Assembly: GCA_963707215.1 (NCBI GenBank)
Contig: CAVPPB010000002.1
Span: forward strand, 288,001-352,000
DNA length: 64,000 nt
Source: an uncultured Chloroflexia bacterium
Lineage (GTDB): Bacteria; Chloroflexota; Limnocylindria; Limnocylindrales; CSP1-4
Direction: 5' to 3'
Positions 6,433 through 40,342 of this stretch are shown here, one piece after another. The position numbers were made by a program, and so were the translations under genes. The notes below the pieces were generated by a model. It did not search any database, had not been told where the DNA came from, and saw only the letters and a list, made by a program, of their open reading frames with translations. Positions within the stretch are counted from its first letter, which is position 1; each line of letters opens with the position of its first letter.

Positions 6433-7509
6433 ATGACCGATCAGCCCGGCCGCGAGCCGGAGCAGCGCCTGCCCGAGCGCCGACCGGAGGCCGAGCCGCC
6501 GAGCGCCGACCGGTTCACCGCGCCGCCTCAGGCGCACAGCTTCGAGCTGACGCCGGAGCGAGCGTCGCGCATCGTCCGGGCCTCCGGTGACTCCCGGCTC
6601 ATCGGCTTCCTCGCCGTCCTCGTCGTCGGGCTCTTCGTGATCGGCTACTACTTCTACGAGCTGGCGCCCTTCGGCCTGACCGAGAGCCGTCTGGACAGCG
6701 AGGCGGCGGCCCAGCAGGTCACCGCGGTCGAGCGGGGCTACAACATCTACCAGGCCAACTGCGCCCGCTGTCACGGCGTGGACGGCGAGGGCGGCATCGG
6801 CCCGGTCCTCAACCGCCAGGACAAGCTGTTCCAGCACCTCGACGAGGCGTACCTGCACACGATCCTGCTCGTCGGCGGGCGCTACGCCTGCGGCGACCCG
6901 AACAGCCTCATGCCCCTCTGGTCGAACGAGGGATCGCCGCCGGGACCGCTCAACTACGAGCAGATCAATGAGCTGATCGAGTTCATCCGGGCGTCCAAGG
7001 ACGAGACCTTCATCGTCCGGGATCCCGAGCTCTTCGAGCCGCTCATCGACCCCGCCACCGGCGAGCCCCGGACCTTCACCGGCTGGGTCGATCCGAACTA
7101 CACGCCGGAGCCGGGCGCGACCCCGTATCCGGATTGCTGGCAGGACGAGTTCGCGGCGCCGCCGCCCGCATCCCCGGGGGCCAGTCCCGAGCCGGGAGCG
7201 TCGGCGGCGCCATCGGAGGCGCCGGGTGACGGTGCCGTCCTCGACATCAGCGCCCAGAACATCGCCTTCGACACCGACACGCTGGAGGCTCCGGCTGACA
7301 CGGCCTTCCAGATCCGCTTCGCCAACAACGACGCCGGCATCCCCCACAACGTGGAGATCCTTGACGAGGCCCGGACGTCGATCTGGAAGGGCGACATCTT
7401 CAATGGCGTCGAGACCCGGGTCTACGACGTGCCGGCCCTGCCGGCGGGCACCTACACGTTCATCTGCACGGTGCATCCGAACATGGTGGGGACCCTCACG
7501 GTCAAGTAG
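6433..7509 (+). CDS. Membrane-anchored monoheme cytochrome c fused to a C-terminal type-1 copper cupredoxin domain
   Basis: TM helix, CARCH heme motif, distal LMPLW Met, Pro/Ala/Ser linker, then HNVEI...CTVHPNM. Confidence 0.88.
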   Translation: MTDQPGREPEQRLPERRPEAEPPSADRFTAPPQAHSFELTPERASRIVRASGDSRLIGFLAVLVVGLFVIGYYFYELAPFGLTESRLDSEAAAQQVTAVERGYNIYQANCARCHGVDGEGGIGPVLNRQDKLFQHLDEAYLHTILLVGGRYACGDPNSLMPLWSNEGSPPGPLNYEQINELIEFIRASKDETFIVRDPELFEPLIDPATGEPRTFTGWVDPNYTPEPGATPYPDCWQDEFAAPPPASPGASPEPGASAAPSEAPGDGAVLDISAQNIAFDTDTLEAPADTAFQIRFANNDAGIPHNVEILDEARTSIWKGDIFNGVETRVYDVPALPAGTYTFICTVHPNMVGTLTVK

Positions 7510-7548
7510 CTCCGGGCCGCCTGGCGGCTCCGGTCGGGATGGAGGACG

Positions 7549-9021
7549 ATGGCCCAGCAGGCACTCGAGAGCGGGGCGACGCGGAAGCGGGTCTTCTTCG
7601 GCCTGCTCGACGCGGACAGCTGGTCATGGGCGGCGGTCAAGGCCGTCTTCTGGCTCATCGTCCTGATCATGATGCTCGGCTACATCCCCGACCGCGCCTA
7701 CTATTTCACGGTATTCAGCACGATCAGCATCGGGCTCGACCCGGCCCAGCCGCCGGCCAGCGCCGTCACGCCGGTCAACCTCTGCCCGGCCGAGAACGGC
7801 GACCTGCCCTGCCCCGTGCCGACCGGCGCGATGCTCCCGTGGGAGCCGTCGCCTGCCGAGGTCGCCCTGCCGGCCGGGCGGACCGACGGCGGGGTCGTCC
7901 AGCTGGGTAGCAAGCTCGTCTACGTCGGTGGGACCGACGGGGCTGGTCCCGTCGCCGACACCTACGTCGCCCGACTCGTCGACGGCAGCACCTTCGACGC
8001 CTGGGAGCCCGGGCCGGCGCTCCCGGAGCCCCGGGCCGGCGCGGCGGTCGTCGCCTTCGGCGGCTCGGCCTACGTCATCGGCGGCTCGGACGCCGGCGGC
8101 GAGCCGACGACGACGGTCTATCGGATGACGGTCGACCTCAACACGGGCGAACTCGGCGAGTGGACCCCCGTCGAGGAGCTCGCGCTGCCCGAGGCCCGGG
8201 CTCGAGCGGCCGTCGCGGTGGCCCCCGACGGCCTGATCCTCGTCGGCGGACAGACGGGCTCAGGCTCCGTGACGTCGGTCTGGAAGAGTGACCTCGATGG
8301 CGACGAGCTGGCTGCCTGGGCGCCGAACGCGGAGATGCCGGAGGCGCGCTACGACCACGGTGCGATCGTCATCGGCGACTACCTCTGGGTCTTCGGCGGC
8401 TCGGGAGCCGACGAGGCGCCGACGGCGACCGTCCTGCGCGGGACCGTGACCGTCCCCGAGGTTCCCGAGGGCTCGCCGCCCGGCGCGACCGCCGACCCGT
8501 CCTTCGTGAGCGACTGGGCGACGAACGCCGATGCGAACCTGCCGGTGGCGCGCACCAACGCGGCGACCTTCACGGCCAACGGGATCGTCTACCTGGTCGG
8601 CGGCAGCGACGGATCGGCCCCGAAGGGCGAGGTCTACTGGGGCGTGCCCGACGGCGACGGCGACATCGACTGGACGACGCTGACGGCGTCCGATCTCCCC
8701 GACCAGGGGCTGGTCGGGGCGGCCGGTGCGGTCTCGGGCTCGACGGCGTTCGTGATCGGGGGCGAGACCCAGGGCGGTGTGCTCGCGTCCTCGGCGCGGG
8801 CCAGCCTGGCGCCCGGCAACCCGTACCTCCAGGTCGGCCTCCTGGGGATCACGATCCCGGCCCTCGGGATCCAGGGCGAGATCGGCCAGCAGATCGGCTA
8901 CCTGAACGCGGCCGGGGTCGGCACGGTCAACTTCATCATCCTGCTCCTGATCGGCGTGGCCTTCGCCCATCCCGAGCGGACGAAGGGCCTGGCCCGGCGG
9001 GTCATCGGGGTCTTCCGCTAG
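7549..9021 (+). CDS. Kelch-repeat beta-propeller protein with N- and C-terminal TM helices
   Basis: Repeated YVIGG/WVFGG/YLVGG...W..LP.AR units; GGAGG SD; same strand, 39 nt after cytochrome c gene. Confidence 0.8.
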   Translation: MAQQALESGATRKRVFFGLLDADSWSWAAVKAVFWLIVLIMMLGYIPDRAYYFTVFSTISIGLDPAQPPASAVTPVNLCPAENGDLPCPVPTGAMLPWEPSPAEVALPAGRTDGGVVQLGSKLVYVGGTDGAGPVADTYVARLVDGSTFDAWEPGPALPEPRAGAAVVAFGGSAYVIGGSDAGGEPTTTVYRMTVDLNTGELGEWTPVEELALPEARARAAVAVAPDGLILVGGQTGSGSVTSVWKSDLDGDELAAWAPNAEMPEARYDHGAIVIGDYLWVFGGSGADEAPTATVLRGTVTVPEVPEGSPPGATADPSFVSDWATNADANLPVARTNAATFTANGIVYLVGGSDGSAPKGEVYWGVPDGDGDIDWTTLTASDLPDQGLVGAAGAVSGSTAFVIGGETQGGVLASSARASLAPGNPYLQVGLLGITIPALGIQGEIGQQIGYLNAAGVGTVNFIILLLIGVAFAHPERTKGLARRVIGVFR

Positions 9022-9032
9022 GCGGCTTCCGG

Positions 9033-9053
9033 CCTGCCGGCCCTGCCGGCAGG
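9033..9053. terminator. GC-rich hairpin between convergent genes
   Basis: CCTGCCGGC-cct-GCCGGCAGG perfect 9-bp inverted repeat; no U-tract. Confidence 0.4.
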
Positions 9054-9069
9054 GTGGTCGCCCGGCGCG

Positions 9070-9426
9070 TCAGGCCGGCAGGTCCCCCTCGCCCGGCCCC
9101 GGGATCCCGGTCGACACCGGCAGCCCGGCCTGGTACCAGGCCACGATGCCCCCGCTGACGTTGGCCACGCGGGGGTAGCCCTGGCGGAGCAGGTACTCGG
9201 TGGCCGAGGCGGACCGCGCACCACTCTTGCAGAGCATCAGCAGTGGCCGGTCGGCCGGCAGCTCGTTGCAGCGGGCGACGAACTCCGAGAGGGGCAGCAG
9301 GACCGACCCGGCGACACGGACCTGGGCGAACTCGTCGGGTTCCCGGACGTCCACGATCAGGGCGCCGCCATCCGCGTGCGTGCTGGCGTCCTGGACGGTG
9401 ACGAAGGGCAGCGACGTCGGATCCAT
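9070..9426 (-). CDS. Single-domain rhodanese (sulfurtransferase)
   Basis: IVDVREPDEF, CKSGARS active-site loop, NVSGGIVAW. Confidence 0.9.
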   Translation of the reverse strand: MDPTSLPFVTVQDASTHADGGALIVDVREPDEFAQVRVAGSVLLPLSEFVARCNELPADRPLLMLCKSGARSASATEYLLRQGYPRVANVSGGIVAWYQAGLPVSTGIPGPGEGDLPA

Positions 9427-9457
9427 CGATCGGGCTCCTGCGGGTCGCTGGCCGTGG

Positions 9458-9910
9458 TCAGCCGAGCTCGGCAAGGGGGCGACGGCCGTCGTAGCCGTCG
9501 TCGTGATCGTGCCACCAGGCGATGTCGCCCTCCCCGAGTCGCCAGCAGAGCCAGACGGGGCGACCGGCGACGAGCGCCGGCAGGTCGACCAGGCCCGTGG
9601 GGATGTCCCGCAGGACGACCTCGACCTCGTCCAGGCGGGTGACGTCGGCCTGCATCTGGTCGATGAGCCCCTGCATCCGCAGGCGGATCCGACGGAGCTC
9701 GGGGTCCCTGGCGGCGAGGTCGGCGAGCGTCTCGTCGTCCAGCGCGCGGCCGGCCGGCGGCCCCGCGGCGGATTGGACCCCGGCGAGACGCTCGACGGCG
9801 AGATCGCGCAGCGCGACGAGCGCCTCGCGCTGGTCGCGCAGGCGCTCCAGGACCTCGCGAAGCTCGGCGATGCGGGCGTTGGCGTCGTCGATGGTGTAGT
9901 AGCGTGTCAC
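9458..9910 (-). CDS. DUF2203-family protein
   Basis: YYTIDDAN N-terminus, LRDIPTGLVDLPA..VWLCWRLGE..WWH..GYDGRRP; TACAAT 7 nt before GTG. Confidence 0.85.
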   Translation of the reverse strand: MTRYYTIDDANARIAELREVLERLRDQREALVALRDLAVERLAGVQSAAGPPAGRALDDETLADLAARDPELRRIRLRMQGLIDQMQADVTRLDEVEVVLRDIPTGLVDLPALVAGRPVWLCWRLGEGDIAWWHDHDDGYDGRRPLAELG

Positions 9911-10050
9911 GAGCAGGATTGTAGAGCCTCGATCCGGATGGTCCGTCGGGCAGGTCCTTCGGCGGCCACTGCTCGGACCCGGCCAGCCGTCACGGGCACC
10001 ACACAGCCCGGCCCGCTGGGGGCCCGGTCGGGTAGAGTCGCCACGGCGAC

Positions 10051-10125
10051 GGGCCCGTAGCTCAGGGGCAGAGCAGGGGACTTTTAATCCTCGTGTCGTG
10101 GGTTCGAATCCCACCGGGCCCTCCA
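10051..10125 (+). tRNA. tRNA-Lys (anticodon UUU)
   Basis: GGGCCCG acceptor stem, TAGCTCAG D-arm, anticodon loop CTTTTAA, GGTTCGAATCC T-arm, encoded CCA. Confidence 0.95.
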
Positions 10126-10401
10126 TGCCCCAGGCCGACGACCACGTCCAGGCGGAGTCAGGAGGACCGACCGCACAGCGCGACGGAGGCTCGCAGCCCA
10201 TCGGACCCTTGGCGATGATGGCCGTACGAACCACGCTGTCCCACGCTGCGCCTCGGCGCGGATCGGACCGGACCGCATCCTGTTCATCCCCCGGATACGC
10301 CATGCTCACGGCGACGGAGCAGGGTCCGGCGCCTGGCGCCGGTCCGTCCGTCGACGGTCCTCCGTCGGAGCATCGCCATCGCCCTTCATGGAGGTCCTCA
10401 G

Positions 10402-11403
10402 ATGGGCTTCGATCTCAGGGACCGCAGCTTCGTCAAGCTGCTTGACTACTCTCCGAAGGAGATCCGCTTCCTGCTTGACCTGGCCGCCGACCTGAAGGCC
10501 GCCAAGTACGCCGGCACCGAGCAGCGGCGGCTGCGGGGCAAGAACATCGCCCTCATCTTCGAGAAGACCTCCACTCGGACCCGGGTGGCCTTCGAGGTGG
10601 CCGCCTACGACCAGGGCGCCCACGTCACCTACCTCGGCCCGAGCGGGACCCAGATCGGCCACAAGGAGTCGATGAAGGACACTGCCCGGGTCCTCGGCCG
10701 CATCTTCGACGGCATCGAGTACCGGGGCTTCGGGCAGGGGATCGTGGAGGAGCTCGCGGCCTACGCCGGCGTCCCGGTCTGGAACGGGCTGACCGACGAA
10801 TTCCACCCGACCCAGATCCTGGCCGACGTGCTGACGATGACCGAGCACAGCGACAAGCCGCTGACGCGCATCTCGTACTGCTACCTGGGCGACGCCCGCA
10901 ACAACATGGGCAACTCGCTGCTGGTCGGCGGGGCGAAGCTGGGGATGGACGTCCGGCTCTGCGCTCCACGGGCGCTCTGGCCCCACGAGGACCTCGTCGA
11001 GACCTGTCGGGGCATCGCCGCCGAGACCGGCGCCCGGATCACCCTGACCGAGGATCCGGCCGAGGGCGTCAAGGACGTCGATTTTCTCTACACGGACGTC
11101 TGGGTCTCCATGGGCGAGGATCCGTCGGTCTGGGAGGAGCGGGTCAGGCTCCTCAAGCCGTACCAGGTCAACGCGGACCTGGTCGCCCTGTCCGGCAACC
11201 CCGGCGTCAAGTTCCTGCACTGCCTGCCGGCCTTCCACGACCGCGAGACGAAGGTCGGCGAGGAGATGTACGAGCGCTTCGGGCTCGACGGCATGGAGGT
11301 CACCAACGACGTGTTCGAGTCAGAGCGCTCGATCGTCTGGGACCAGGCCGAGAACCGGATGCACACGATCAAGGCGGTCATGGTCGCGACGCTCGGCGAC
11401 TGA
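10402..11403 (+). CDS. arcB: Ornithine carbamoyltransferase (probably catabolic)
   Basis: [28 protein letters not shown] motifs; adjacent to arcA. Confidence 0.93.
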
Positions 11404-11540
11404 GCCGATCGGCTCGCTCGACGACCGGGCCTCGTCGACGGCACGGACGGCACGACCACCGTCCCCGCCAGTGGGGCCATGGCAGGATCGGAAACGGGTC
11501 GGCTCGCTGGCCGCCCGGGCCGTTGAAGGAGCGACGTGTC

Positions 11541-12800
11541 ATGACAGGGTTCGGGGTCCACTCCGAGGTCGGCAAGCTGCGCAAGGTCATCGTCCATCGG
11601 CCGGACCTCAGCCTGAGGCGGCTCACGCCCGGCAACCACGACGACCTGCTCTTCGACGACGTCCTGTGGGTCGAGCGGGCCAAGTGGGAGCACGACCAGT
11701 TCGTCGCCCGGATGCGCGAGCGCGGTGTCGAGGTCTTCTACGTCGAGGACCTCCTGACGGAGGCGCTGGCCGAGGACGAGGTCCGGCTCCGCCTGATCGA
11801 GGTCGTGACCCGCGAGCACGTCGTGGGCCCGACCCTCGTGGAGGAGGTCGCTGCGTGTCTGGCCGGATTCCCGCCGGACGTCCTGGCCGCTCACCTCATC
11901 GGGGGCCTGACCGTCGGCGAATCGGGGCTCGACCTGGGCCGCCTTGCCGGCGGCTCACTGATCGCGGCGGCGATCGAAGACGACACGACGTTCATCCTGC
12001 CGCCCCTCCCGAACACGCTCTTCACGCGCGACTCGTCGTGCTGGATCTACGGCGGCGTCTCAGTCAACCCGATGTTCTGGCCGGCTCGTCGTCGCGAGGC
12101 GTTCAACATGGCCGCCATCTACCGCGGCCACCCGATGTTCCGCGAGGCCGACTTCGAGTTCTGGTACCCGACGATGGGGGAGGACGAGCGGGTCCGGGCC
12201 GAGGACTTCGGCATGGCCTCATTGGAGGGCGGCGACGTCGAGGTCCTGGGACGTGGCACGGTGCTCATCGGCCTCTCCGAGCGGACCACCGGTCGGATGA
12301 TCGAGGAGATCGCACTGGCCCTCTTCGCCAGGGAGGCGGCCCAGCGCGTCATCGCCTGTGTGATGACCAGGGACCGGGCCCACATGCATCTCGACACCGT
12401 GTTCACCCTCCTTGACCTGGACAAGGCGACGGCCTATCCCAAGGTCGTCGAGGGGATCCGGGCGATCAGTCTTCGGCCGGGCGAGCGGCCCGGTACCCTC
12501 GACGTCCGGCCCGAGAGGGACCTCCTATCGGCGGTCACGGATGCCCTCGGCGTGCCGAAGCTGCACGTGGTCGAGACCGGCGGTGACGCCTACCAGCAGG
12601 CCCGTGAGCAATGGGACGACGGCAACAACGTCGTCGCCCTCGAGCCTGGCGTCGTCGTCGCTTACGAGCGGAACACGTTCACCATCTCGAAGATGCGCGA
12701 TGCCGGGGTCGAGGTCATCCCGATCGAGGGCTTCGAGCTGGGCAAGGGCCGCGGCGGTGGGCACTGCATGACCTGCCCGATCAGCCGCGACGCTGTCTGA
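11541..12800 (+). CDS. arcA: Arginine deiminase
   Basis: VHSEVGKL, LLFDD, PNTLFTRD, LEGGD, MHLDTV, EQWDDGNN, GRGGGHCMTCP. Confidence 0.95.
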   Translation: MTGFGVHSEVGKLRKVIVHRPDLSLRRLTPGNHDDLLFDDVLWVERAKWEHDQFVARMRERGVEVFYVEDLLTEALAEDEVRLRLIEVVTREHVVGPTLVEEVAACLAGFPPDVLAAHLIGGLTVGESGLDLGRLAGGSLIAAAIEDDTTFILPPLPNTLFTRDSSCWIYGGVSVNPMFWPARRREAFNMAAIYRGHPMFREADFEFWYPTMGEDERVRAEDFGMASLEGGDVEVLGRGTVLIGLSERTTGRMIEEIALALFAREAAQRVIACVMTRDRAHMHLDTVFTLLDLDKATAYPKVVEGIRAISLRPGERPGTLDVRPERDLLSAVTDALGVPKLHVVETGGDAYQQAREQWDDGNNVVALEPGVVVAYERNTFTISKMRDAGVEVIPIEGFELGKGRGGGHCMTCPISRDAV

Positions 12801-12872
12801 GGGAGGGGCGGGTCCCGCACCTCGATCGGGCCGGCTCGTGAGCTGCCGCGTGCCCCTGCGCGGGACGATCGA

Positions 12873-13748
12873 TCAGAACGGCGTCGGGATGTACTTGAGC
12901 GGCAGGTCGGGCGAGGTGTGGCCAGCGCTCACCCTGCGCTTTGGCAGCTCCACCTCGCGAGGCTCGAGCGGCTCGTAGGGGACCTGGCTCAGCAGGTGGC
13001 TGATGATGTTGAGCCGCCCCCGCTTCTTGTCGTCGGTGCGGGCGATCCACCAGGGCGCCCACGGTGTGTCGGTCGCCGCCAGCATGGCGTCCCGGGCCCG
13101 CGAGTAGTCGTCCCAGCGGCCGTACGACTTGAGGTCCATGTCGGTCAACTTCCAGACCTTGCGGGGGTCGTTGATGCGGCCCTCGAGGCGGCGGGTCTGC
13201 TCCTCGGGGCTGACCTCCAGCCAGTACTTGAGGAGGATGATCCCGGACTCGACCATCGCCCTCTCGACGGCCGGTGCCTGCTCGAGGAACTTCTCGGTCT
13301 CCTCGGGAGTGCAGAAGCCCATGACCCGCTCGACCCCGGCCCGGTTGTACCAGCTGCGGTCGAAGATCACGACCTCGCCGCCCGCTGGGAAGTGCGGCAG
13401 GTAGCGCTGGACGTACATCTGGGACTTCTCGCGCTCGGTCGGGGCGGACAGGGCGACGACCTTGAAGACCCGCGGGCTGACCCGCTCGGTGATCCGCTTG
13501 ATGGTGCCGCCCTTGCCGGCGGTGTCCCGGCCCTCGAAGACGATGCAGACCTTGGCCCCGGTCGCCTTGACCCACTCCTGCATCGCCACGAGCTCGCCGT
13601 GGAGGCGGGTCATCTCCCGCTCGTAGTCCTTGGTCTTCATCTTCGGCGGGGGCCCGCCCGGGGACGGCTCGGATTCGCCGCCCGGGACGTCGCGGGGCGC
13701 CTGGTCCTCATGCGGCTTCCGACCCTTCTTGTCCCTCTTCTTGGTCAC
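12873..13748 (-). CDS. ppk2: Polyphosphate kinase 2
   Basis: FEGRDTAGKGG Walker A, FDRSWYNRAGVERVMGF, DDKKRGRLN; GGAGG SD before GTG at 13748. Confidence 0.93.
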   Translation of the reverse strand: MTKKRDKKGRKPHEDQAPRDVPGGESEPSPGGPPPKMKTKDYEREMTRLHGELVAMQEWVKATGAKVCIVFEGRDTAGKGGTIKRITERVSPRVFKVVALSAPTEREKSQMYVQRYLPHFPAGGEVVIFDRSWYNRAGVERVMGFCTPEETEKFLEQAPAVERAMVESGIILLKYWLEVSPEEQTRRLEGRINDPRKVWKLTDMDLKSYGRWDDYSRARDAMLAATDTPWAPWWIARTDDKKRGRLNIISHLLSQVPYEPLEPREVELPKRRVSAGHTSPDLPLKYIPTPF

Positions 13749-13889
13749 GTTCTCGTCCTCCACTCGGCTCGTCGATATCGGATCCGGCTGCGGCACAGCC
13801 AGACACCTGGACGTCCGGGAGCTGGCTCGGCGGCGCCGGCTATGCCGGTCCGCCGCCGCTGCGCGGCTCCGGGACTTCGGTCCGTAGCA

Positions 13890-16652: not shown

Positions 16653-16911
16653 CGTCTCCCTCGCTTCATGCGCACCGGCCCCGGCCCCGGGATCGGTCTC
16701 GAGCCAGTGTCCGAAGATGCTACCCCACGGGTCCGGGCCGACTCCGGGCCATGAGGCCCGGACGCCTGTCGCCACTAGACCCGATGGCGCGACGACGCGC
16801 ATCCTCCCTTTGGGGGGGGTATGGGACCGGCCCTGGACGCCGCGTGCGCTCGGGCGGGGCGCGACGCATCCGTCGGTGGGTCGGTCGGCGACCGAACCCG
16901 CCGATCCCCGC

Positions 16912-27668: not shown

Positions 27669-27715
27669 CGATCCCCGGGCGCCGCGTCGGCGACGCTCAA
27701 GACGTCCCGCGGATC

Positions 27716-27744: not shown

Positions 27745-27778
27745 ACCGCGTCCGGCGGGCGTGGGGATGACTTCCGGG

Positions 27779-28285: not shown

Positions 28286-28318
28286 GGACCGGGAGTCTAG
28301 CCGGACCGGGTCGGGCGT

Positions 28319-29998: not shown

Positions 29999-30277
29999 AG
30001 GAAGCTCCTGACGAGGGCCCTCCCGCGAGTCACGGGGCCCGGTCAGGGCGTTGGATGGATCGGGATCGGCGGTGTTCAGGACCGGGGCGCTGACCGGAGC
30101 GCCCATCGAGCACGAGGTGCGAACCATACATGAGAACCGAGGACGGCGCTCGGACCGCACGAGCCGGCCTCGAGTCGCGCTCGGCGGAACGCGACGCAAC
30201 GAGAGCGGATGACCAGCGTCCACCTGCACAGACCGCCGTCGCGCGCCTTCGCGCGCCAGGGGGATCGGAGGTATGCC

Positions 30278-33065
30278 ATGCCCGGACGGACCATCCTCAG
30301 CCGACTCGGTACGTTCCTCTGCGGTGCGGCCGTCGTCATCGCCCTCGCGCTGCCCACGGGCAGCGTCGCGGCCGCCGAGCCTTCAGCCGGGCCCGCCGTC
30401 CAGACCCTCGAGGGCGTCATCGAGACCGCCGCGCCTGCTGGCCGCGTCAACGCGCGAGCTGCGGCGGGGCTGGGCCTCAGGGAGCCCACGAGCGTCGGCC
30501 CGTCACTACCGCTCCCGGCCGGCCCGGTGAGCGCGCTGACGGCCCCGGTCGAGCCCTCGGCGGCACCCCCCGTCGCCACCGTCACTGGGCCGGCGGATCT
30601 CGCGTCCGTCGGCTTCGCCGGACTCGACTCGAGCAGCCTCCCGGCCGGGTGGGCTGAGAACCCCGGGTGGTCGGGCGTCGCCGTCGGCCCGTACGACGTC
30701 GTCCAGACGACGAGCTCCGGGTTCCGTTTCTCGGATCGAGCAGGTCGCGGCGCCTGGGAGGTGACCTACACGGACTTCCTCGGCTCGAGCCAGATCTCGG
30801 TCGCGCTCGACGGGCGAGTCGCCTGGGACGCGGAACATGAGCGCTGGATCGCCGTGGCGACCGCGGTGCGGTGCGGCTGGTGGCCCGAGGGCTACCTCAT
30901 GATCGCGGTCTCCGAGACCACGGACCCACAGTGGTTCTGGTCGTACTGGCTCCTCTCTACCGGGGACATCCCTCCCGATCGTGCCGACGTTGGGCAGCTC
31001 GAGCAACAAGGTGGTCGTCGGCTACTACGGTGCGCCGATCACCGGCTCGGGCTCCTGCTTCGACTGGGCAGGGGACGCACAGCACTAGCCCTCGTCGTGT
31101 GGACTGGTCGTCGCTGATCCCGCCCGGGACCTCGACTTCTACTGAACGGGTCCAGCAGCATCCGGGGGATCGGTGGCCGTGGCGACCGGCCCTGAACGAT
31201 CCGGGCAGCCGGCCGCGCCGGCCTATGCGGTCGCTCGCGACGCCGACGGCATCGAGCTCGCGACGATCACGGGACGGTGGCGTCGGGCATCGTGTGTCGG
31301 TCGACGAGCTCGTGGGGCGTTGCGCCGCCCCGACCCCCGATTGGTCCGGCCCGACCCGACGTCGTTCGGCGGGGAACCGAGCTCTTCATGGTCGCCAGGC
31401 GATCTCTGCGACCCGGCCCTCGACGGGACCGCTCCGTGCGTGCGCATCTCCTCGGTGTCGACGAGCGGCACGAGCTGGCTGCAGGACTTCACGATCGGGA
31501 TCGAGGGTCAGGACGTGTCCCAGGGCGCTGTCGAGGTGGCCGGCGACGGGACGCTGCACGTGACGTTCAGCGCCCGCCCATCGAGCCCGCAGGCTGGCGT
31601 CGGTGCATCGACCTGGGCCGTCCACCAGGCCAAGACCGCGCCGGCCGGGACGGTCAGCCCCCCGACGCTGATCGCTCGGGGTGCCTACCTGCCGTCGGGC
31701 GACGTCCTCGGCGGCGTCAGCAGGCTCGCGCCCGACCCGAGCGACCCACATGCGGTCTGGCAGGCCGACGCCTACGGCGGCCGCCCCGGCGGCGGCTGGT
31801 CGACCTGGGTCTCGCAGCTCCGGACGGGCGTGCCGGAGGCCCCGGCAGGCTTGCTCTCGATCGAGTCCGGGCGACCCACGACCCACGCCCTCGATGTCCG
31901 GCTCTCCGCCGTCCCGGCCAGCGGGTCCCGGATCCTGCTCTCGAGCTCCAACGCCACGGCTGCCGGGAAGCTGTCGCATGCGCTGGACCTCGAGCCGTCG
32001 CCCGACATCCTGTGGGACCTGGCCGACCCGGCCTACGGCGGCTCGACCGCCACGGGCGATCGGCGCGTCTACTTCCAATGGGGTGATGGCGCGGGTGCCT
32101 GGTCGTCCGTCCAGAGTGCCGTGATCCGCTACGCGGGCCCGCCGGCCGTCATCCGCATCTACGGAGCCGACCGCTATGCGACCGCGGCGGCCGTCGCACG
32201 AACGAACTACGCCCCTGGCGTCCCGGCCGTCTACGTCGCCACGGGTCTCAACTTCCCCGACGCCCTGGCAGGTGCCGGGGCAGCCGGCTTCGAGGGCGCC
32301 CCGGTCCTGCTCGTCACCGCCGATCGAATCCCGGCCGCGACGGCCCAGGCGCTCACCTCTCTCAAGCCTGAGCGGATCGTGATCCTGGGCGGCACCGGCG
32401 TCGTGTCAAACCCCGTCCGGACCGCGCTGGCCGCCTACGTTCCCGGTGGGGCGGCCTCGGTGTCGCGGCTGGCTGGACCGGACCGCTACGCGACGGCCGC
32501 GGCGATCTCGGCCGCGACGTATGAGCCCGGCGTCAACGAGGTGCTGATCGCGACCGGGCTCAACTTCCCGGATGCCCTGGCGGGCACCGCCATCGCGGCT
32601 CGAGATGGTGCGCCGTTGCTGCTCGTCACCCGCACGACCGTCCCCAGCGCGACCGCCGCCGAGTTGGCTCGTCTGAAGCCGCACAGGATCGTGATCCTGG
32701 GCGGGGAGGGGGTCGTCGGCCCGGCGTTGGTCAGCGCCCTTCGGAAGTACACCGACGGGGGGATCTTCCGGGTGTCCGGAGCTGACCGATACGAGACGGC
32801 CGCAGCGATCTCGTGGGTGTGGTTCGGCGAGCACCCGGCGGTCGGCTTCGTGGCCACCGGCCTCAATTTCCCGGATGCGCTCGCCGGAGGAGCGCTCGCT
32901 GGGCGACTTGGGAGTCCGCTCGTCCTCGTGCCCGGTATCTCGATCCCGGCTCCGATCGATGAGGTGCTCGAGTTCCTGGCTCCGCCCGAGTTCGACGTCC
33001 TCGGTGGCCCGAGCGTCGTCTCGAACGGGGTCATGACCTCGCTGGCGAGCTACCTCGGGCCCTAG
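30278..33065 (+). CDS. Secreted surface protein with three C-terminal cell-wall-binding repeat 2 (CWB2) domains; frameshifted at about 30980-31400
   Basis: Signal peptide; three copies of R..G.DRY.TA..(I/V)..[23 protein letters not shown]; reading frame broken in the middle. Confidence 0.8.
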
Positions 33066-33119
33066 GGTCCGAGTAGCGAGGAAACCGGCAGTCCCCGGGA
33101 GGTCGGCCGTCCACCGCGC

Positions 33120-33863: not shown

Positions 33864-34882
33864 GGCGTCCACTCCGGCTCGGCCGGGTCGGTGGCCCCGG
33901 GCTCTCCGACCTCGCCGGCGGTCTCGCCACCATCGTTCGCATCAGGACCGACGAGCTCCAGGTAGCGCTCCTCCAGCGATGGGCCGATCGCCCGCAGCTC
34001 GAGGGCGTGGACGTCCTGCTCTGCCAGCCACGTCGCGACCGCAGCCGTGAGGGCCGGGGACGGCTCCACGTCCTCGACGACGAGCGAGCGCGGTTCGTCC
34101 AGGACCGCCACGCGGCTTGCCCCGACCGGTGCGATGGCCGCCTCCAGGGATCCCCGCTCGTCGGCGGAGAGCGGGCGCTCCAGGCGCAGGCGGAGCCGCG
34201 GGCCCGCTCCCGCCAGGAGCTCGGCCGGCGTGCCCGACGCCACCAGCCGACCGTGATCGATGATGGCGATGCGGTCGGCCAGCCGCTCCACGTCGGGTAG
34301 CTCGTGGGACGTCAGGAGGACCGTCGCTCCGGCGTCGCGCAGCGCCCGGAGCCGCTCCCGCGCGGCGACCTTGGCAGCCGGATCCATCCCCGCGGTCGGT
34401 TCGTCGAGGATCAGGAGCTCTGGTCGGCCGACCAGAGCGAGCCCCAGGGACAGGCGCTGGCGCTCGCCGCCCGAGAGGCGTCGCCAGGGGGTCGTGGCGA
34501 CCGCTTCCAGGCCCAGCTCGCTGAGCAGCTGGTCCGGGTCGAGTGGATCGACCCAGAAGCGGGCGTACAGGCGGAGCAGCTCCCGGGGCCTGGCCAGCGG
34601 CTGGACGCCGCCCTCCTGGAGCATCAGACCAAGGCGCTCGCGAAGCGCCCGGCCCTGACCCCACGGGTCGAGGCCCAGGACCATGGCGCTGCCTCCATCG
34701 GCCCGTCGGTAGCCTTCGACGATCTCGACCGTCGTCGTCTTGCCCGCGCCGTTCGGCCCGAGGAGTGCCGTGATCGAGCTCCGCGCCACGGTGAGGTCGA
34801 GGCCGTCGACGACGGCTCGTCCGTCGTACCGCTTGACCAGGCCCTCGATCCGGACAGCCGGCCCCGCGGCCGAGGTCGTCAC
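33860..34882 (-). CDS. ABC transporter ATP-binding protein
   Basis: GPNGAGKTT, LSGGERQR, LILDEPT, TSH. Confidence 0.9.
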   Translation of the reverse strand: MTTSAAGPAVRIEGLVKRYDGRAVVDGLDLTVARSSITALLGPNGAGKTTTVEIVEGYRRADGGSAMVLGLDPWGQGRALRERLGLMLQEGGVQPLARPRELLRLYARFWVDPLDPDQLLSELGLEAVATTPWRRLSGGERQRLSLGLALVGRPELLILDEPTAGMDPAAKVAARERLRALRDAGATVLLTSHELPDVERLADRIAIIDHGRLVASGTPAELLAGAGPRLRLRLERPLSADERGSLEAAIAPVGASRVAVLDEPRSLVVEDVEPSPALTAAVATWLAEQDVHALELRAIGPSLEERYLELVGPDANDGGETAGEVGEPGATDPAEPEWTP

Positions 34883-35424
34883 GGGGCGATCTTCGCCCAC
34901 TGCTGGTCGAAGTCCTCCGGCAGCAGCTCGCCGATGTGGATCCCCTGGACGATCCCGGCGGCATCGATGAAGTAGGTCTGCGGCGGGGCGACGACCCGGT
35001 ACGCTTCGGCGAAGGCATCGTCCGGGTCGTCGACGGTCGGCCAGGTCGCCCCGAACTCGGTCACGAACGCCTGGGCCGGTGCCGGGTCGTCCTTGAACAG
35101 GACCCCGACCAGGGCCATCCCGTCGGCCTCGTGGGCGTCCAGCGCCTCGTCCAGGACCGGGAACTCGTTGCGGCACGGCGTGCACCAGGACGCCCAGAAG
35201 TTGACGACGACGGGTCGTCCGCGCAGGTCCGCCAGGTCGAACGCGGCCCCATCGAGCGTCGAGCCGGCGATGGCGGGGGCCGAGGAGCCGATCGAGCCGC
35301 CCTGGCTCCCGTCGGAGCCGCAGCCGGCAACGACCAGGAGCGACGCCAGGATCGCGGCGAGCAAGCGGGGTCGCGTCACAGCTCGGGAACGAGGAGGGGC
35401 CGCCCGGCCTGGATCGCTGGTCAT
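34879..35424 (-). CDS. TlpA/ResA-family thiol-disulfide oxidoreductase lipoprotein
   Basis: Lipobox VAGC, NFWASWCTPC, PQTYFID. Confidence 0.88.
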   Translation of the reverse strand: MTSDPGRAAPPRSRAVTRPRLLAAILASLLVVAGCGSDGSQGGSIGSSAPAIAGSTLDGAAFDLADLRGRPVVVNFWASWCTPCRNEFPVLDEALDAHEADGMALVGVLFKDDPAPAQAFVTEFGATWPTVDDPDDAFAEAYRVVAPPQTYFIDAAGIVQGIHIGELLPEDFDQQWAKIAP

Positions 35425-35484
35425 CGGTCCATCCTCGTCGCTGGGCCCCGTCGAGGCAACGGCGACGCTGGCAGGTCCGTCGTC

Positions 35485-36621
35485 CTAGCCGCCCGCCGTC
35501 ATCGTCCCGACCATGTTCGGATGGACGGTACAGATGAACGGGTAGGTCCCGGCGGGCAGGGCCGGGACCTCGTAGACCCGGGTCTCGACGCCGTTGAAGA
35601 TGTCGCCGAGGAAGACGGTCGCACCACTCTCGTCCCTGATCTCGACGTTGTGGGGCACGCCGGCGTCGAGATTGACGAAGGCGATGGTGAAGGGCCGGTC
35701 CGCGGGGATCGCCACGTCGGTCTCGAGGAACGCGATGCCCTGGGCCGTGATCGTCACGTCGGCCTGGGGGATCTCGGGGGCGGCGGAGGCTCCCGGTTCG
35801 GCCGAGGCGCCGGGCGCACCCGAGGCGCCGGGCGACGGCGATGCCCCGCCGCCGCCGTCGCCGGCGCTGGCGGGCGGCAGGACGCCGGCGTTGATGGCGA
35901 CGGCGACCACCACCAGCACCGCCGCGGCCGCGAACGAGCCGGTCGGGAACCGTGGGTCGGGACCGTTGTCGAGGTGGCCGGTCCGGTCGGCCTCCACGGT
36001 CGCGTTGTACTCCCGGCGGGCGTCGCGCAGCCACCCCAGCAGCGCCCAGACGACGACGATGAGGCCGGCGACGAGTAGCGCGCCGCCGAAGACGACCCCC
36101 AGGAAGAGGACCGCGGCGGACAGGGCGACGAGGAACGGCCGGTACGACGGCCCGGGGACGTGGACGCCGGGCGGCGGGCCGGACGGCACCACAGCCGGCA
36201 GCTGGGCTGCGCTCGCCTCGTGCTCGTCGGGCGCCGCGTGCTCGTAGTCGGTCATGGCTTCGCGGAGCCAGTACAGGAGCGTCAGGGCCAGCACGCTCAG
36301 GCCGACGATGAGGACCCAGCCGCCCAGGACGAGACCGGCGAACGCGAGGAACGCCCCGAACGCGGCCAGGAACGGCGCCAGCGAGGGCCCGGGCATGTGG
36401 ATCCCCGGCGGCGGCGCCGATGGTCTTCGCTGGTAGCCGCGCCGGGTGGGACCGGCCGACATCCAGCGCCGGGCGAACCAGGCCAGGAAGGCGACGACCA
36501 GGACGAGCAGGATGACCGGGATGAGCGACACCAGCTCGCCCCAGTCGGGCATCACGAAGACCTGGGTCAGCTCGAGGATCGACTCCCAGATCCCCTGGAT
36601 GAACTCCCAGACAGGCTCCAC
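35485..36621 (-). CDS. CtaF (oxidase subunit IV)-like membrane protein with duplicated helical hairpin and C-terminal cupredoxin
   Basis: Two HxPGPS..PF..A-TM-TM-WLR(E/D)A..(D/E)Y repeats; C-terminal HNVEI...CTVHPNM; last structural gene of cox operon. Confidence 0.7.
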   Translation of the reverse strand: MEPVWEFIQGIWESILELTQVFVMPDWGELVSLIPVILLVLVVAFLAWFARRWMSAGPTRRGYQRRPSAPPPGIHMPGPSLAPFLAAFGAFLAFAGLVLGGWVLIVGLSVLALTLLYWLREAMTDYEHAAPDEHEASAAQLPAVVPSGPPPGVHVPGPSYRPFLVALSAAVLFLGVVFGGALLVAGLIVVVWALLGWLRDARREYNATVEADRTGHLDNGPDPRFPTGSFAAAAVLVVVAVAINAGVLPPASAGDGGGGASPSPGASGAPGASAEPGASAAPEIPQADVTITAQGIAFLETDVAIPADRPFTIAFVNLDAGVPHNVEIRDESGATVFLGDIFNGVETRVYEVPALPAGTYPFICTVHPNMVGTMTAGG

Positions 36622-36640
36622 GTCGGGTCCGGCCCTGGAC

Positions 36641-36838
36641 TCAGTCGCCGCGCGGGGAGCCGGCCGCGAGGACGTAGGCCATCAGGCTCATGGCGAGGCC
36701 GAGGGCGAGCAGCATCGTGAAGCCGGCGACGTCGACGACGCCCCCGAAGATGATGGGCACCGCCACGTAGACGACGGCGATGACGGCGAACACGACCCCC
36801 ACGAGGAGCGCGTTCCGAGGGTGGCGCAGGATGTGCAT
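36641..36838 (-). CDS. Small two-TM protein resembling the N-terminal half of actinobacterial CtaF
   Basis: 65 aa MHILRHPRNALLVGVVFAVIAVVY..DVAGFTMLLALGLAMSLMAYVL; TGATG overlap with ctaE stop. Confidence 0.65.
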   Translation of the reverse strand: MHILRHPRNALLVGVVFAVIAVVYVAVPIIFGGVVDVAGFTMLLALGLAMSLMAYVLAAGSPRGD

Positions 36839-37488
36839 CAGGCGCCTCCGCTCGTGCCGGGCAGGATGTAGAGGATCGTGAACAGGGCGATCCAGACGAC
36901 GTCGACGAAGTGCCAGTAGAGGGACGTCGCCTCGACGGCATCGTGGTGGCGGGCTGAGAACTGGCCGGCCATGCCGCGGTAGAGCACGACGCTCAGCATG
37001 ACGACCCCGCCCAGGACGTGGGCGCCGTGGAAGCCGGTCAGCGTGTAGAAGGTGCTGCCGAACGCTCCCGAGTCGAGGGTCACGCCGTCGCTCCAGAGGA
37101 CGATGTAGTCGGTGAACTGGATGACGAGGAAGACGATGCCGAGGGCCAGCGTCACCGCGATGTTGCGGACGAACCCGGTCCGGTCGCCCTTGCGGATCGC
37201 CCAGACCGCGAACTGGCAGGTGAACGAGCTCAGGACCAGCAGGATCGTCGCCGGCCCGGCGAAGGGCAGGACGTGGAGGACGTCGGCGAACTCCGCCGGG
37301 GGCCACTCGGGGGCCGCCGTCCGGACGTTGAAGTAGGCCGCGAACAGGCCCGCGAAGAACATCACCTCGGAGGCGATGAACAGGATCATCCCCAGGATCG
37401 GGTTGCTGATCCCGCCGCGGGTGTCGTGGGCCAGGCCGCCGACCGGGCTGTGCTCGGTCGTGGTCAGGGCCTGCGGTTCGGCGGTCAC
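36838..37488 (-). CDS. ctaE: Heme-copper oxidase subunit III
   Basis: LFIASEVMFFAGLF, FYTLTGFHGAHV, YWHFVDVVW. Confidence 0.93.
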   Translation of the reverse strand: MTAEPQALTTTEHSPVGGLAHDTRGGISNPILGMILFIASEVMFFAGLFAAYFNVRTAAPEWPPAEFADVLHVLPFAGPATILLVLSSFTCQFAVWAIRKGDRTGFVRNIAVTLALGIVFLVIQFTDYIVLWSDGVTLDSGAFGSTFYTLTGFHGAHVLGGVVMLSVVLYRGMAGQFSARHHDAVEATSLYWHFVDVVWIALFTILYILPGTSGGA

Positions 37489-37521
37489 GTCAGATGCTCC
37501 TCCGTCGGTCGTTCGCGCGGG

Positions 37522-39144
37522 TCAGTGGCCGGCGGCCTGGCCGTGCCGGGCATCGAAGACGGGCCGCTCCGAGCGGATCTCCGGCAGGTGGTCGAAGTTG
37601 TAGGCAGGCGGCGGCGAGGCGGTCGCCCACTCGAGGGTGTTGCCCTCCCACGGGTCATCGCCGGCGTGCTTGCCGCCGCGCAGCGAGACGAAGACGTTGA
37701 ACAGGAAGGGCAGGATCCCGAGGGCGATGACGAAGCCGCCGATCGTGGCCACGAGGTTCAGGTCGTTCCAGCCGGCGCTCGCGCTGTAGTCGGCGATGCG
37801 CCGGGGCATCCCGGCCAGGCCCAGCTGGTGCATCGGGAAGAAGGTCAGGTTGAAGCCGATGAACAGCAGGACGAACTGGAACTTGCCCATTGTCTCGTTG
37901 AGCATCCGGCCGGTCATCTTGGGGAACCAGTAGAAGATCCCGGCGAAGACCGCGAAGACGGACCCGCCGAAGAGCACGTAGTGGATGTGGGCCACGACGT
38001 AGTACGTGTCGTGGAGGGCGAAGTCCACCGGCACCGAGGCGTGGAAGGCGCCGTTGATCCCGCCGATGAGGAACATCGTCAGGAAGCCCAGGGCGTAGAG
38101 CATCGGCGTGGTGAAGCTCAGCTGGCCGCGGAACATCGTGGCGATCCAGTTGAACATCTTGACGCCGGTGGGGATGGCGATCAGGAAGGTCATGAACGAG
38201 AAGAACGGCAGGAAGACCGAACCGGTCGTGAACATGTGGTGGGCCCAGACCGAGAAGCCCAGGGCCCCGATGCCCGCGGTCGCGAAGACGAAGGCCTTGT
38301 AGCCGAAGAGGGGTTTGCGGCTGAAGACCGGCAGGACCTCGCTGATGATCCCCATCGCCGGCAGGATCATGATGTAGACGGCCGGGTGCGAGTAGAACCA
38401 GAACACGTTCTGCCACAGCACCGCGCTGCCGCCCAGGGCCGGGTCGAAGAAGTGACCGCCGTAGTTGCGGTCGATGAAGAGCATGATCAGGCCGCTCGTC
38501 AGGACCGGCGTGGCCATGAGGACCAGGACGCTGGTCACCAGGACCGTCCAGACCATGATCGGCATCCGGAAGAGGGTCATGCCCGGCGCCCGCATCTTGA
38601 AGATCGTCACCAGGAAGTTGACGGCGCCCAGGATGGAGCTCGTCCCGATGAGGGTCACGGCCATCAGCCAGAGGTCGACGCCGGTGCCGGAGAAGGCCGC
38701 CCCCGAGAGCGGCGGGTAGGAGGTCCACCCAGCGGCCGCGGCGCCGCCGTCGACGAAGAAGCCGGCGCACATGAGGATGCCGGCCAGCGGCAGCATCCAG
38801 AAGCTCAGGGCGTTGATCCGCGGGAAGGCCATGTCCGGGGCGCCGATCATCAGCGGCACGGCGTAGTTGCCGAAGCCGGCCAGCATCGGGATCACGAACA
38901 GGAAGAGCATCAGGCTCGCGTGCATCGTGAAGGCCTGGTTGTAGGCCTCTTCGCCGAGGATCTGCAGCCCCGGCTGGGCCAGCTCGGCCCGCACCCCCAG
39001 GGCGAGCAGGCCGCCCAGGAAGAAGAAGATGAACGAGTTGATGACGTAGAGGATCCCGATCTTCTTGTGATCGGTCGTCGTCACCCACTCGTAGATGGCG
39101 CTCCGGCGGGCGGGGATGGCGGGATTCAGGGCGGTGGTGGCCAT
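37522..39144 (-). CDS. ctaD: Heme-copper oxidase subunit I, A2 type
   Basis: TTDHKKIG, PDMAFPR, WFYSHPAVY (A2 signature), WAHHM, HDTYYVVAHIHY, GMPRR. Confidence 0.96.
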   Translation of the reverse strand: MATTALNPAIPARRSAIYEWVTTTDHKKIGILYVINSFIFFFLGGLLALGVRAELAQPGLQILGEEAYNQAFTMHASLMLFLFVIPMLAGFGNYAVPLMIGAPDMAFPRINALSFWMLPLAGILMCAGFFVDGGAAAAGWTSYPPLSGAAFSGTGVDLWLMAVTLIGTSSILGAVNFLVTIFKMRAPGMTLFRMPIMVWTVLVTSVLVLMATPVLTSGLIMLFIDRNYGGHFFDPALGGSAVLWQNVFWFYSHPAVYIMILPAMGIISEVLPVFSRKPLFGYKAFVFATAGIGALGFSVWAHHMFTTGSVFLPFFSFMTFLIAIPTGVKMFNWIATMFRGQLSFTTPMLYALGFLTMFLIGGINGAFHASVPVDFALHDTYYVVAHIHYVLFGGSVFAVFAGIFYWFPKMTGRMLNETMGKFQFVLLFIGFNLTFFPMHQLGLAGMPRRIADYSASAGWNDLNLVATIGGFVIALGILPFLFNVFVSLRGGKHAGDDPWEGNTLEWATASPPPAYNFDHLPEIRSERPVFDARHGQAAGH

Positions 39145-39157
39145 CGCGGAGACTCCC

Positions 39158-40342
39158 TTACTCGACCGTCAGGGTGCCGGTCATGTTCGGGTGGACCGTG
39201 CAGACGAAGGTGTAGGTCCCGGCCGGCAGCGCCGGCACGGCGTAGTCGCGGGTGTCGACGCCGTTGAAGATCTCGCCCAGGAAGACCGTCGCACCGGATC
39301 CGTCCTTGATCTCGACGTTGTGGGGGACCCCGGCGTCGTTGTTGGCGAAGCGGATCGTGAACGGCTGGTCGGCGGAGGCCGTCAGCTGGGCGGTGTCGTA
39401 CTCGATGTTCTGGGCCGAGATCTCCAGTACGGCGCCGGAGGGGGCCTGGCTCGGCTGGGGCTCGCCGCTCGGCTGGGGCTGCGCGCTCGGCGCCGGCTCA
39501 CCGCTGGGCTGGGGCTCGGCGCTCGGCTGCGGCGGCGGGGCGTTGGCGATCTGGTCGGCCAGCCAGGCGTCGAACTCGGCCGGGGCGAGCGCCTTGACGG
39601 TGAACTGCATCGCCCAGTGCTGGGCGCCGCAGAGCTCGGCGCACTGGCCGCGGAACGTCTGGCCCGCGAAGTCGGCCGGGATGTCGAACTCGAAGGCGTT
39701 CTCCTTGCCGGGGATCACGTCGCGCTTGAAGAGGAACTGCGGGACGTAGAAGGCGTGGATCACGTCGGGGCTTCGGAGGGTCAGGTGGACCGTCTCGCCG
39801 GCCGGCACGACCATCTCCGGGGCGAACTGGGTGAACTCGACGGTCGAGCCGTCGGCGGTCAGGTACTCGAAGGTCCACTGGTAGCGGGCGCCGATGGCCC
39901 GGATCCGGACCTCGCCCTCATCTGCGGTGGCGGCGTTGACCGAGTTGAGGGTCTGCCAGCTGATGACGAAGAGCGCCGCCACGACGATCGTCGGGATGAC
40001 CGTCCAGATCACCTCCAGCAGGTTGTTCCCGTGGATCTGCGGCGGAAGCTCGCTGTCACCGGGCTTTCGCCGGTAGCGCACGACCGCCCAGATGATCGCC
40101 CCCTCGACCAGGAGGAAGACGATCGCGGCGATGATGAAGATGATCGTGTAGAGATCGTGGATGGCCTTGCCCTGCTCGGTCGTCGGCACCGGCGGGAAGA
40201 AGGACGCCCAGACGACCCCGAGCTGGGCCACGATGTCGTTGCCGCGAAGGGCCAGGATCCCCAGGAAGACCGCGACGGTGGCCACGGCCGCGACCGTCAG
40301 GATGACGGCGGGGGAGAGGCCAGGTCTGCGGGGCGATGTCAT
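39158..40342 (-). CDS. ctaC: Heme-copper oxidase subunit II (CuA) with C-terminal cupredoxin fusion
   Basis: IHGNNLLEVIWT, YQW, DVIHAF, CAELCGAQHWAM CuA motif, PQPS linker, HNVEI...CTVHPNM. Confidence 0.92.
   Translation of the reverse strand: MTSPRRPGLSPAVILTVAAVATVAVFLGILALRGNDIVAQLGVVWASFFPPVPTTEQGKAIHDLYTIIFIIAAIVFLLVEGAIIWAVVRYRRKPGDSELPPQIHGNNLLEVIWTVIPTIVVAALFVISWQTLNSVNAATADEGEVRIRAIGARYQWTFEYLTADGSTVEFTQFAPEMVVPAGETVHLTLRSPDVIHAFYVPQFLFKRDVIPGKENAFEFDIPADFAGQTFRGQCAELCGAQHWAMQFTVKALAPAEFDAWLADQIANAPPPQPSAEPQPSGEPAPSAQPQPSGEPQPSQAPSGAVLEISAQNIEYDTAQLTASADQPFTIRFANNDAGVPHNVEIKDGSGATVFLGEIFNGVDTRDYAVPALPAGTYTFVCTVHPNMTGTLTVE

Follow-up and report, generated by a model that had tools for sequence, protein, structure and literature searches.

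A 64-kb window of the genome of an uncultured Limnocylindria bacterium (contig CAVPPB010000002.1, positions 288,001 to 352,000; G+C ~72%) encodes three different proteins that end in the same cupredoxin domain of ~95 residues. This window is the part of that genome that was analysed, and coordinates are counted from its first letter. According to the translations of its open reading frames (ORFs), the domain is carried by a monohaem cytochrome c whose gene lies in a Rieske/cytochrome b6 operon, by subunit II of a caa3-like oxidase, and by a subunit-IV (CtaF-like) protein. The reading favoured here is that the three domains transfer electrons by way of type-1 (blue) copper and constitute a tethered copper relay, in which the haem c of the Rieske/b6 complex would pass electrons on to the CuA site of the oxidase. 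Judged jointly, copper binding by the domains and the relay built upon it are considered probable.

The triple occurrence of the domain is not a matter of chance, because a tblastn search of the whole window with one copy finds exactly three places (E 8e-65, 1e-42, and 2e-36), while the next matches have E >= 2. Cupredoxin_1 (PF13473) is present at residues 265-357 of the cytochrome c protein (nt 7225-7503, + strand; E 3.9e-11), at residues 297-393 of subunit II (nt 39164-39454, - strand; E 1.6e-14), and at residues 284-376 of the CtaF-like protein (nt 35494-35772, - strand; E 6.1e-9); Copper-bind (PF00127) also matches the domains. These borders agree to within a few codons with those given in a preliminary description of the window, and the consensus motif quoted there fits the alignment of the three copies. 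Relative to the cytochrome c copy, the other two have 70% and 63% protein identity, and over the last 270 nt the copies are 74-77% identical in DNA. The putative copper ligands are H305, C345, H348, and M351 in the cytochrome c protein, H341, C381, H384, and M387 in subunit II, and H324, C364, H367, and M370 in the CtaF-like protein. This His/Cys/His/Met set is invariant in the window's three domains (alignment A1, 3/3) and in the alignments of 45 subunit II (A3, 45/45), 15 CtaF-like (A4, 15/15), and 19 cytochrome c proteins (A5, 19/19).

Structural comparison points in the same direction. In the models of the CtaF-like protein and of subunit II, the domain is a run of strands with a predicted local distance difference test score (pLDDT) >90, and its top fold matches are auracyanin 6kol, amicyanin 1id2, and plastocyanin. 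When the three copies are combined into a profile, it matches auracyanin A (E 7e-9) in two partial stretches only, and aligns with amicyanin 1id2 (E 4e-6) over the whole domain; the His of P-H-N-V and the Cys-x2-His-x2-Met loop align with both ligand regions of amicyanin. This whole-domain alignment, together with the fold matches, bears out the short amicyanin-type C-x2-H-x2-M loop of the preliminary description. Amicyanin is the soluble partner of methylamine dehydrogenase. The window domain resembles it in the equal length of the loop and in aligning from end to end, but it reaches just 28.8 bits on the NCBIfam amicyanin model, which has a cut-off of 110.2. By its predicted fold and ligand set, the domain is thus classed as a type-1 cupredoxin, but not as amicyanin proper.

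Each of the three domains is preceded in the translations by a Pro/Ser/Ala/Gly-rich linker, as the preliminary description had noted, and in the models the linkers are segments of low confidence (residues 283-298 of subunit II and 252-280 of the CtaF-like protein, pLDDT < 50). For all three domains the predicted location is the outer membrane face, and not the cytoplasmic side that the preliminary description had named as counting against its proposal. In subunit II the cupredoxin comes after the CuA domain, with no helix between or beyond; in the cytochrome c protein the CxxCH domain comes before the cupredoxin, with no later helix. The CtaF-like protein has six predicted transmembrane (TM) helices, an acidic N-terminus, and six Arg after TM1, and the helix count together with the Arg cluster argues that its N- and C-termini are both outside.

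The oxidase end of the proposed relay is encoded on the - strand. Subunit II-cupredoxin (39158..40342, 394 residues from the ATG at 40342; translation, Pfam, and A3) consists of a signal/anchor helix, two TM helices, a CuA domain, the linker, and the cupredoxin (Pfam COX2_TM+COX2). Its CuA site is intact (H...C-x-E-x-C-G-x2-H-x2-M), it scores 172.5 bits on TIGR02866 CoxB (cut-off 147.7), and its model has a pLDDT of 87.9. The best fold match of the model is 2yev_B, from the Thermus caa3 oxidase (E 2e-17, 34% identity); actinobacterial CtaC chains come next. The 394 residues contain no CxxCH, the mark of the C-terminal cytochrome c of caa3 oxidases. Since CuA is intact and CxxCH is absent, the cupredoxin stands at the position of the caa3 cytochrome c. 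(Complex prediction with the CuA domain, A3 137-268, and the cupredoxin, A3 299-394, gave a score of 0.02 against a mark of 0.32, which is no answer either way.) In subunit I (37522..39144, - strand, 540 residues; Pfam COX1 2.5e-163), the sequence YSHP (F-Y-S-H-P-A-V-Y) is found at the position of the A1 channel glutamate. Such a replacement of the A1 glutamate by Tyr-Ser in helix VI is the mark of an A2-type oxidase, as in caa3. A gene for a Caa3_CtaG assembly factor (40448..41677, + strand, approximate start; Pfam PF09678, 2.7e-79), whose frame was picked by codon-position GC, is divergent from the subunit II gene.

Taken together, the YS motif of subunit I, the 2yev_B fold match, and the neighbouring Caa3_CtaG gene argue that the oxidase, as judged from its sequence, is caa3-like, with a predicted cupredoxin where caa3 has its cytochrome c, in keeping with the proposal of the preliminary description. 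It shares with the Thermus thermophilus caa3 oxidase (2yev) the structure of subunit II, the YS motif, the Caa3_CtaG gene, and a carrier fused after CuA. In contrast to caa3, the carrier in the window is a type-1 cupredoxin rather than a CxxCH cytochrome c, and a second carrier is present on a subunit-IV-like protein. The idea that copper is used "instead of a cytochrome c" would hold at subunit II, but not for the chain as a whole, which is not all-copper: a haem c is kept on the Rieske/b side.

This haem belongs to the cytochrome c-cupredoxin protein (6433..7509, + strand, 358 residues; translation, Pfam, and A5), which is encoded 30 kb from the oxidase operon. It consists of a cytoplasmic N-terminal segment, one TM helix, a class I cytochrome c (Pfam Cytochrom_C, residues 99-187; CxxCH at 110-114), a Pro/Ser/Ala linker, and the cupredoxin. 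Residues C110, C113, H114, and M160 are invariant in 19/19 homologues (A5), as are the cupredoxin ligands. (Two cysteines outside the haem motif, C153 and C235, are likewise invariant in 19/19 of these proteins, and could pair as a disulfide within the cytochrome c domain.) The same operon, also on the + strand, encodes a split-type cytochrome b6 (4344..5072; Pfam Cytochrome_B 1.6e-45); subunit IV, the C-terminal part of cytochrome b, with the Qo motif A-P-W-Y (5099..5701; Pfam); and a Rieske iron-sulfur protein with a twin-arginine leader and a CPHLGC...CPCHGS motif (5718..6392; Pfam/NCBIfam). It thus joins b6 and subunit IV, a Rieske 2Fe-2S protein, and a c-type haem subunit. Cytochrome b6 bears a CxGG motif (F-C-L-G-G), and so may hold a haem ci, and narrowly passes the NCBIfam model for "ExtP"-type b cytochromes (295.6 bits, cut-off 290). 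Directly upstream, with a stop that overlaps the cytochrome b6 start, is the gene of a GltD-like flavoprotein with NAD(P)-binding and Fe-S cluster domains (2512..4347, + strand, 611 residues; NF009410, 2e-127). A Kelch-repeat beta-propeller protein that has TM helices at both ends (7549..9021, + strand; Pfam and gene neighbourhood) is encoded immediately after the cytochrome c-cupredoxin gene, here and in all related loci whose flanks are long enough. All six genes are complete and in order in 19/21 loci with the cytochrome c part; the other 2 are cut by contig ends. Consequently, the "complex III" of the preliminary description is sound in that a Rieske/b6 operon with a c-type haem is present, but by its sequence the complex is an atypical one of the APWY type, accompanied by genes for a flavoprotein and a Kelch membrane protein. 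Kao and Hunte (PMC4122944) count Chloroflexi among the members of an "APWY clade", which they call biochemically uncharacterised and whose complex may operate in reverse in Geobacter.

The flavoprotein raises a different view of this operon. Its gene adjoins that of cytochrome b6 in 19 related loci, where it is 80-95% identical and among the best-conserved operon genes, and it is probably part of the Rieske/b6 operon or complex. By analogy with what a passage of PMC12954380 proposes for anammox bacteria, namely the formation of NAD(P)H by bifurcation in Rieske/b complexes that include an NAD(P) oxidoreductase subunit, the flavoprotein may link the complex to NAD(P). The complex would then be an NAD(P)-linked bifurcating one instead of an ordinary complex III, with the copper relay as its high-potential outlet: one electron would go via haem c and the cupredoxins to the oxidase, and the other via the b haems and Fe-S clusters to the flavoprotein, which would reduce NAD(P)+. 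The overlap of the two genes, the conserved order and conservation of the operon, the APWY Qo motif, the CxGG motif, and the anammox proposal (as given in that part of its source) all favour such a scheme. But gene adjacency is no proof of a complex, the likeness to the anammox subunits is one of gene context, easier routes to NAD(P)H are open to an aerobic heterotroph, and the flavoprotein could equally well deliver electrons to the quinone pool. Bifurcation is for these reasons considered unlikely; it is in any case compatible with the explanation of the cupredoxin domains preferred here.

The second oxidase-borne copy is on the subunit-IV/CtaF-like-cupredoxin protein (35485..36621, - strand, 378 residues; translation, Pfam Cyt_c_ox_IV), whose gene lies inside the oxidase operon after that of subunit III. 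The protein consists of TM1, two repeated units of H-x-P-G-P-S plus hairpin, TM6, the linker, and the cupredoxin, and H-x-P-G-P-S is invariant in both repeats of the membrane part (35857-36621, - strand). It passes PF12270, the family of the actinobacterial-type oxidase subunit IV, with 37 bits against a gathering cut-off of 26.9, and the N-terminal parts of 14/14 homologues match this family. NCBIfam has no family for the protein, phmmer of its N-terminal part against solved structures gives 0 matches, and a fold search with the whole model matches cupredoxins only, with none to the membrane part. A profile of the membrane part (A6) has a sole significant match among solved structures, to residues 9-66 of Rhodobacter sphaeroides subunit III (E 3e-4); none of the solved CtaF chains is matched. 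Residues 9-66 are the first two helices of that subunit, and it is exactly these that are absent from subunit III of the window, a short form of 216 residues (36838..37488, - strand; Pfam COX3) that aligns to Pfam COX3 only from position 78 of 258. Pfam COX3 itself does not match the 14 CtaF-like N-terminal parts at E <= 1. As a lead from this one profile match, the anchor could be a duplicated, split-off N-terminal piece of subunit III. The CtaF-like label of the preliminary description therefore survives as far as PF12270 goes, but it does not convey that the anchor is a duplicated two-helix hairpin whose sole solved match is to helices 1-2 of subunit III.

The fusion architecture is conserved across Limnocylindria genomes. 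Among the best 120 relatives listed for subunit II, COX2+Cupredoxin_1 is found in all 120 under the plain database name "cytochrome c oxidase subunit II"; the closest one listed, at 88% identity, is from a "Candidatus Limnocylindrales bacterium". Among the best 120 listed for the CtaF-like membrane part, 117 have Cupredoxin_1 and 102 have PF12270, and their names are "plastocyanin", "cupredoxin domain-containing protein", or "cytochrome c oxidase subunit 4". A scan of genomes, one per species, gave 326 domain-encoding stretches, of which the best 80 were kept, leaving 71 loci in 44 assemblies, so that counts per assembly are lower bounds. Every locus is from a Chloroflexota or Limnocylindria assembly, and Limnocylindria are represented by metagenome-assembled genomes only. 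These loci contain 93 cupredoxin ORFs: 23 cytochrome c, 21 subunit II, 19 CtaF-like, 27 lipoproteins, and 3 unclassed. (The initial blastp left 40/93 unclassed; most of these are lipoproteins, and the rest are frameshifted or cut genes, which were re-classed by gene neighbourhood.) The domain-architecture search that the preliminary description had suggested thus finds all three kinds of fusion. The gene order of both operons is kept in the relatives; in particular, the CtaF-like cupredoxin gene is downstream in 19/21 subunit II loci, with the other 2 cut by contig ends.

The lipoproteins constitute a fourth member of the family. They stand alone and have a lipobox, a conserved P-G-W-T-Y/F-A-P, a long Pro/Ser/Ala linker, and the cupredoxin (examples are L002:5824-6306, L012:5800-6279, L016:5767-6285, and L033:5779-6279, with 23 more). 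All four host classes are seen in at least 8 of the 44 assemblies. No respiratory genes are found beside the lipoprotein gene in 4 loci examined, where its neighbours are unrelated. Because a lipoprotein-anchored copy exists in relatives, a laterally diffusing carrier may take part, and the supercomplex entertained in the preliminary description is not required. (Directly downstream of the lipoprotein copy, three assemblies encode a second, divergent lipoprotein cupredoxin, ~28% identical and with the loop C-P-V-H-P-N-M, at L025:~6300-6755, L026:6297-6752, and L041:6288-6749.)

The lipoprotein also makes it conceivable that there is no direct wire or supercomplex at all, and that the fused domains are docking or entry sites for a diffusing lipoprotein cupredoxin or other donors, much as caa3 oxidases are fed by a separate cytochrome c. 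Such an arrangement would be consistent with the abundance of stand-alone lipoproteins with long linkers (27/93 ORFs), with the co-occurrence of the four classes, and with the location of the lipoprotein gene apart from the respiratory genes in the 4 loci. It is harder to reconcile with the window, which has no lipoprotein copy, and with the tethers on both complexes, which are long enough for direct contact. It is regarded as rather unlikely.

Comparison of the copies with one another adds a further line of evidence. The domain phylogeny that had been called for, a quick tree of 96 domains with host labels from the initial blastp classing, has clusters that follow the genome and not the host protein: the host label requires 42 changes against a minimum of 3, and in six sets of identical rows more than one host class is represented. 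Over the last 270 nt, the 85 pairs from the same genome but different host proteins have a median DNA identity of 95.6%, with 43 pairs >= 95%, while the 1022 pairs from different genomes but the same host protein have a median of 74.1%, with 2 pairs >= 95%. For 50/71 copies the nearest relative is within the same genome. In many relatives, the DNA of copies from different genes reaches 98-100% identity over sharp tracts of 275-386 nt (for example, L007/L025/L028; L032/L036/L050; L034/L037/L039; L016/L027/L029), whereas the flanking DNA is merely 50-70% identical. Near-identical tracts within dissimilar flanks are the signature of gene conversion confined to the domain, and this pattern in the sequences indicates that gene conversion occurs among the domain copies of many relatives. 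Most of the homogenised cases share one isolate-name prefix, so that an effect of the assembly pipeline is not fully excluded; contrary to such an effect, an independent assembly (BPIH) has the same pattern, and in two cases all copies are on a single multi-Mb contig. Since conversion takes place between different host genes, it argues that the modules are functionally interchangeable. The window copies are not homogenised: for each, the closest match is the orthologous copy of the nearest assembly (86-92% identity).

How the relay might operate can be outlined as follows. Each cupredoxin would be held at the outer membrane face by a flexible tether of 30-40 residues. Electrons from quinol would reach the Rieske cluster, then the haem c of the 6433-7509 protein, and then that protein's own tethered cupredoxin. 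From there they would pass to the cupredoxins on subunit II and on the subunit-IV-like protein, either directly or by way of the lipoprotein cupredoxin found in relatives, and the oxidase cupredoxins would deliver them to CuA, haem a, and finally haem a3-CuB. The subunit II cupredoxin would in this way substitute for the cytochrome c domain of caa3 oxidases. The cell is probably without an outer membrane, and tethering would prevent the loss of its carriers. We infer copper binding, the order of the electron-transfer steps, and any III-IV supercomplex from sequence.

Several points weigh against this relay. The haem c is retained, so that copper is not a full replacement for cytochromes, and other c-type cytochromes elsewhere in the genome, beyond the 64-kb window, could carry the III-to-IV flux. 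The presence of two tethered domains on one oxidase is without explanation. The window copies, at 63-70% identity, need not be equivalent here, and the bits on the amicyanin model TIGR02657 (28.8 and 20.3) are far under its cut-off. By tblastn the 64-kb window has no lipoprotein copy. The Rieske/b6 complex falls in the APWY group, whose complexes have been proposed to run in reverse or in a non-canonical way (PMC4122944). Finally, the class is, to our knowledge, uncultured.

A role outside electron transfer has also to be weighed, in which the domains are copper chaperones or stores for the assembly of CuA and CuB. Genes of assembly character do flank the oxidase operon: besides CtaG there is a lipoprotein thiol-disulfide oxidoreductase of the ResA/TlpA type with WCTPC (34879..35424, - strand; Pfam/NCBIfam), which is kept after the CtaF-like gene in relatives and probably acts in CuA or haem c maturation. 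Cupredoxin-like folds also occur in some copper chaperones. But the ligands and the loop, which are invariant, are of the kind found in type-1 sites for electron transfer, one copy is on the cytochrome c of the Rieske/b operon, where no copper site needs assembly, and a dedicated assembly factor is already there. A chaperone role is thus very improbable.

A wider scheme, which is rather improbable, would combine the copper relay with bifurcation in a single Limnocylindria module. A flavoprotein-bound APWY Rieske/b6 complex would bifurcate, so that NAD(P)+ is reduced while the other electron goes to O2 via interchangeable copper domains on four genes, those of the cytochrome c, the lipoprotein, subunit II, and the subunit-III-derived anchor. 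Gene conversion would keep the domains identical and hence isopotential.

Parts of the tethered relay have parallels in known systems. Auracyanins of Chloroflexus and Roseiflexus are from the same phylum, are membrane-tethered blue copper proteins, and give the best sequence and fold matches; they differ in being separate proteins with a longer Cys-to-Met ligand loop, and they match in two partial stretches. The actinobacterial bcc-aa3 supercomplex has a dihaem cytochrome cc as its fused carrier. It is like the present system in being from monoderms with a carrier built into the complexes, in the close structure of its subunit II, and in the PF12270 match of the CtaF-like protein; it is unlike it in that its carrier is haem, in that the cytochrome b of the window is split and of the APWY type, and in that A6 matches no solved CtaF chain. 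In the Sulfolobus SoxM complex, the blue copper protein sulfocyanin connects a Rieske/b module with a haem-copper oxidase. For ammonia-oxidising archaea, a link of this kind through plastocyanin-like carriers is known or proposed (PMC7785015 and PMC9038741). Both archaeal cases place blue copper proteins between a Rieske/b module and a haem-copper oxidase, as is proposed here, but these are separate subunits, and the triple fusion is not described for either. A section of PMC3128077 describes halocyanin fused to subunit IIa of haloarchaeal ba3 oxidases. On the basis of that section, the likeness is a blue-copper partner fused to a small transmembrane haem-copper oxidase subunit; the difference is that halocyanin-IIa is archaeal, B-type, and single-helix, with one fusion, whereas the window has a bacterial, predicted A2-type oxidase and three fusions, one of them on the Rieske/b side. 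Fused carriers and archaeal blue-copper links are thus already known, and the cupredoxin fusions described here are a new variant of the caa3, halocyanin-IIa, and auracyanin ideas. Full-text literature searches found no paper describing these fusions in Chloroflexota, and "cupredoxin", "copper", and "plastocyanin" are absent from the main text, supplements aside, of a 2026 Limnocylindria paper (PMC13212565).

The respiration of Limnocylindria has so far been known from automatic gene names only. If the relay exists, the aerobic chain of this class would use complex-borne copper domains where other bacteria use cytochrome c, which would tie its respiration to the copper supply, and it would be a natural example of a modular relay of tethered copper domains in which gene conversion maintains the identity of the copies. 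An NAD(P)-binding link to the Rieske/b6 complex would make the disputed anammox bifurcation proposal testable in an aerobe. The cupredoxin domains are small, and are thus easy targets for expression, spectroscopy, and the determination of potentials.

Some further features of the window and of the domain family were observed. An ORF at 40552-42003 has no Pfam match and is an out-of-frame artefact of the high G+C; the real gene there is that of CtaG. Three repeats of CW_binding_2 (E 5e-57), which is a wall-anchoring module, are present in a protein encoded at 31173-33065 (+ strand). This module is typical of single-membrane bacteria, and as such would fit the need for tethered carriers. Among the protein-database relatives of the cupredoxin domain (P0249-P0398; for example, P0346, P0388, P0261, P0257, and P0365), tandem arrays of 2 to 8 copies per protein are found, and in one relative the domain is fused to a Ser/Thr protein kinase.

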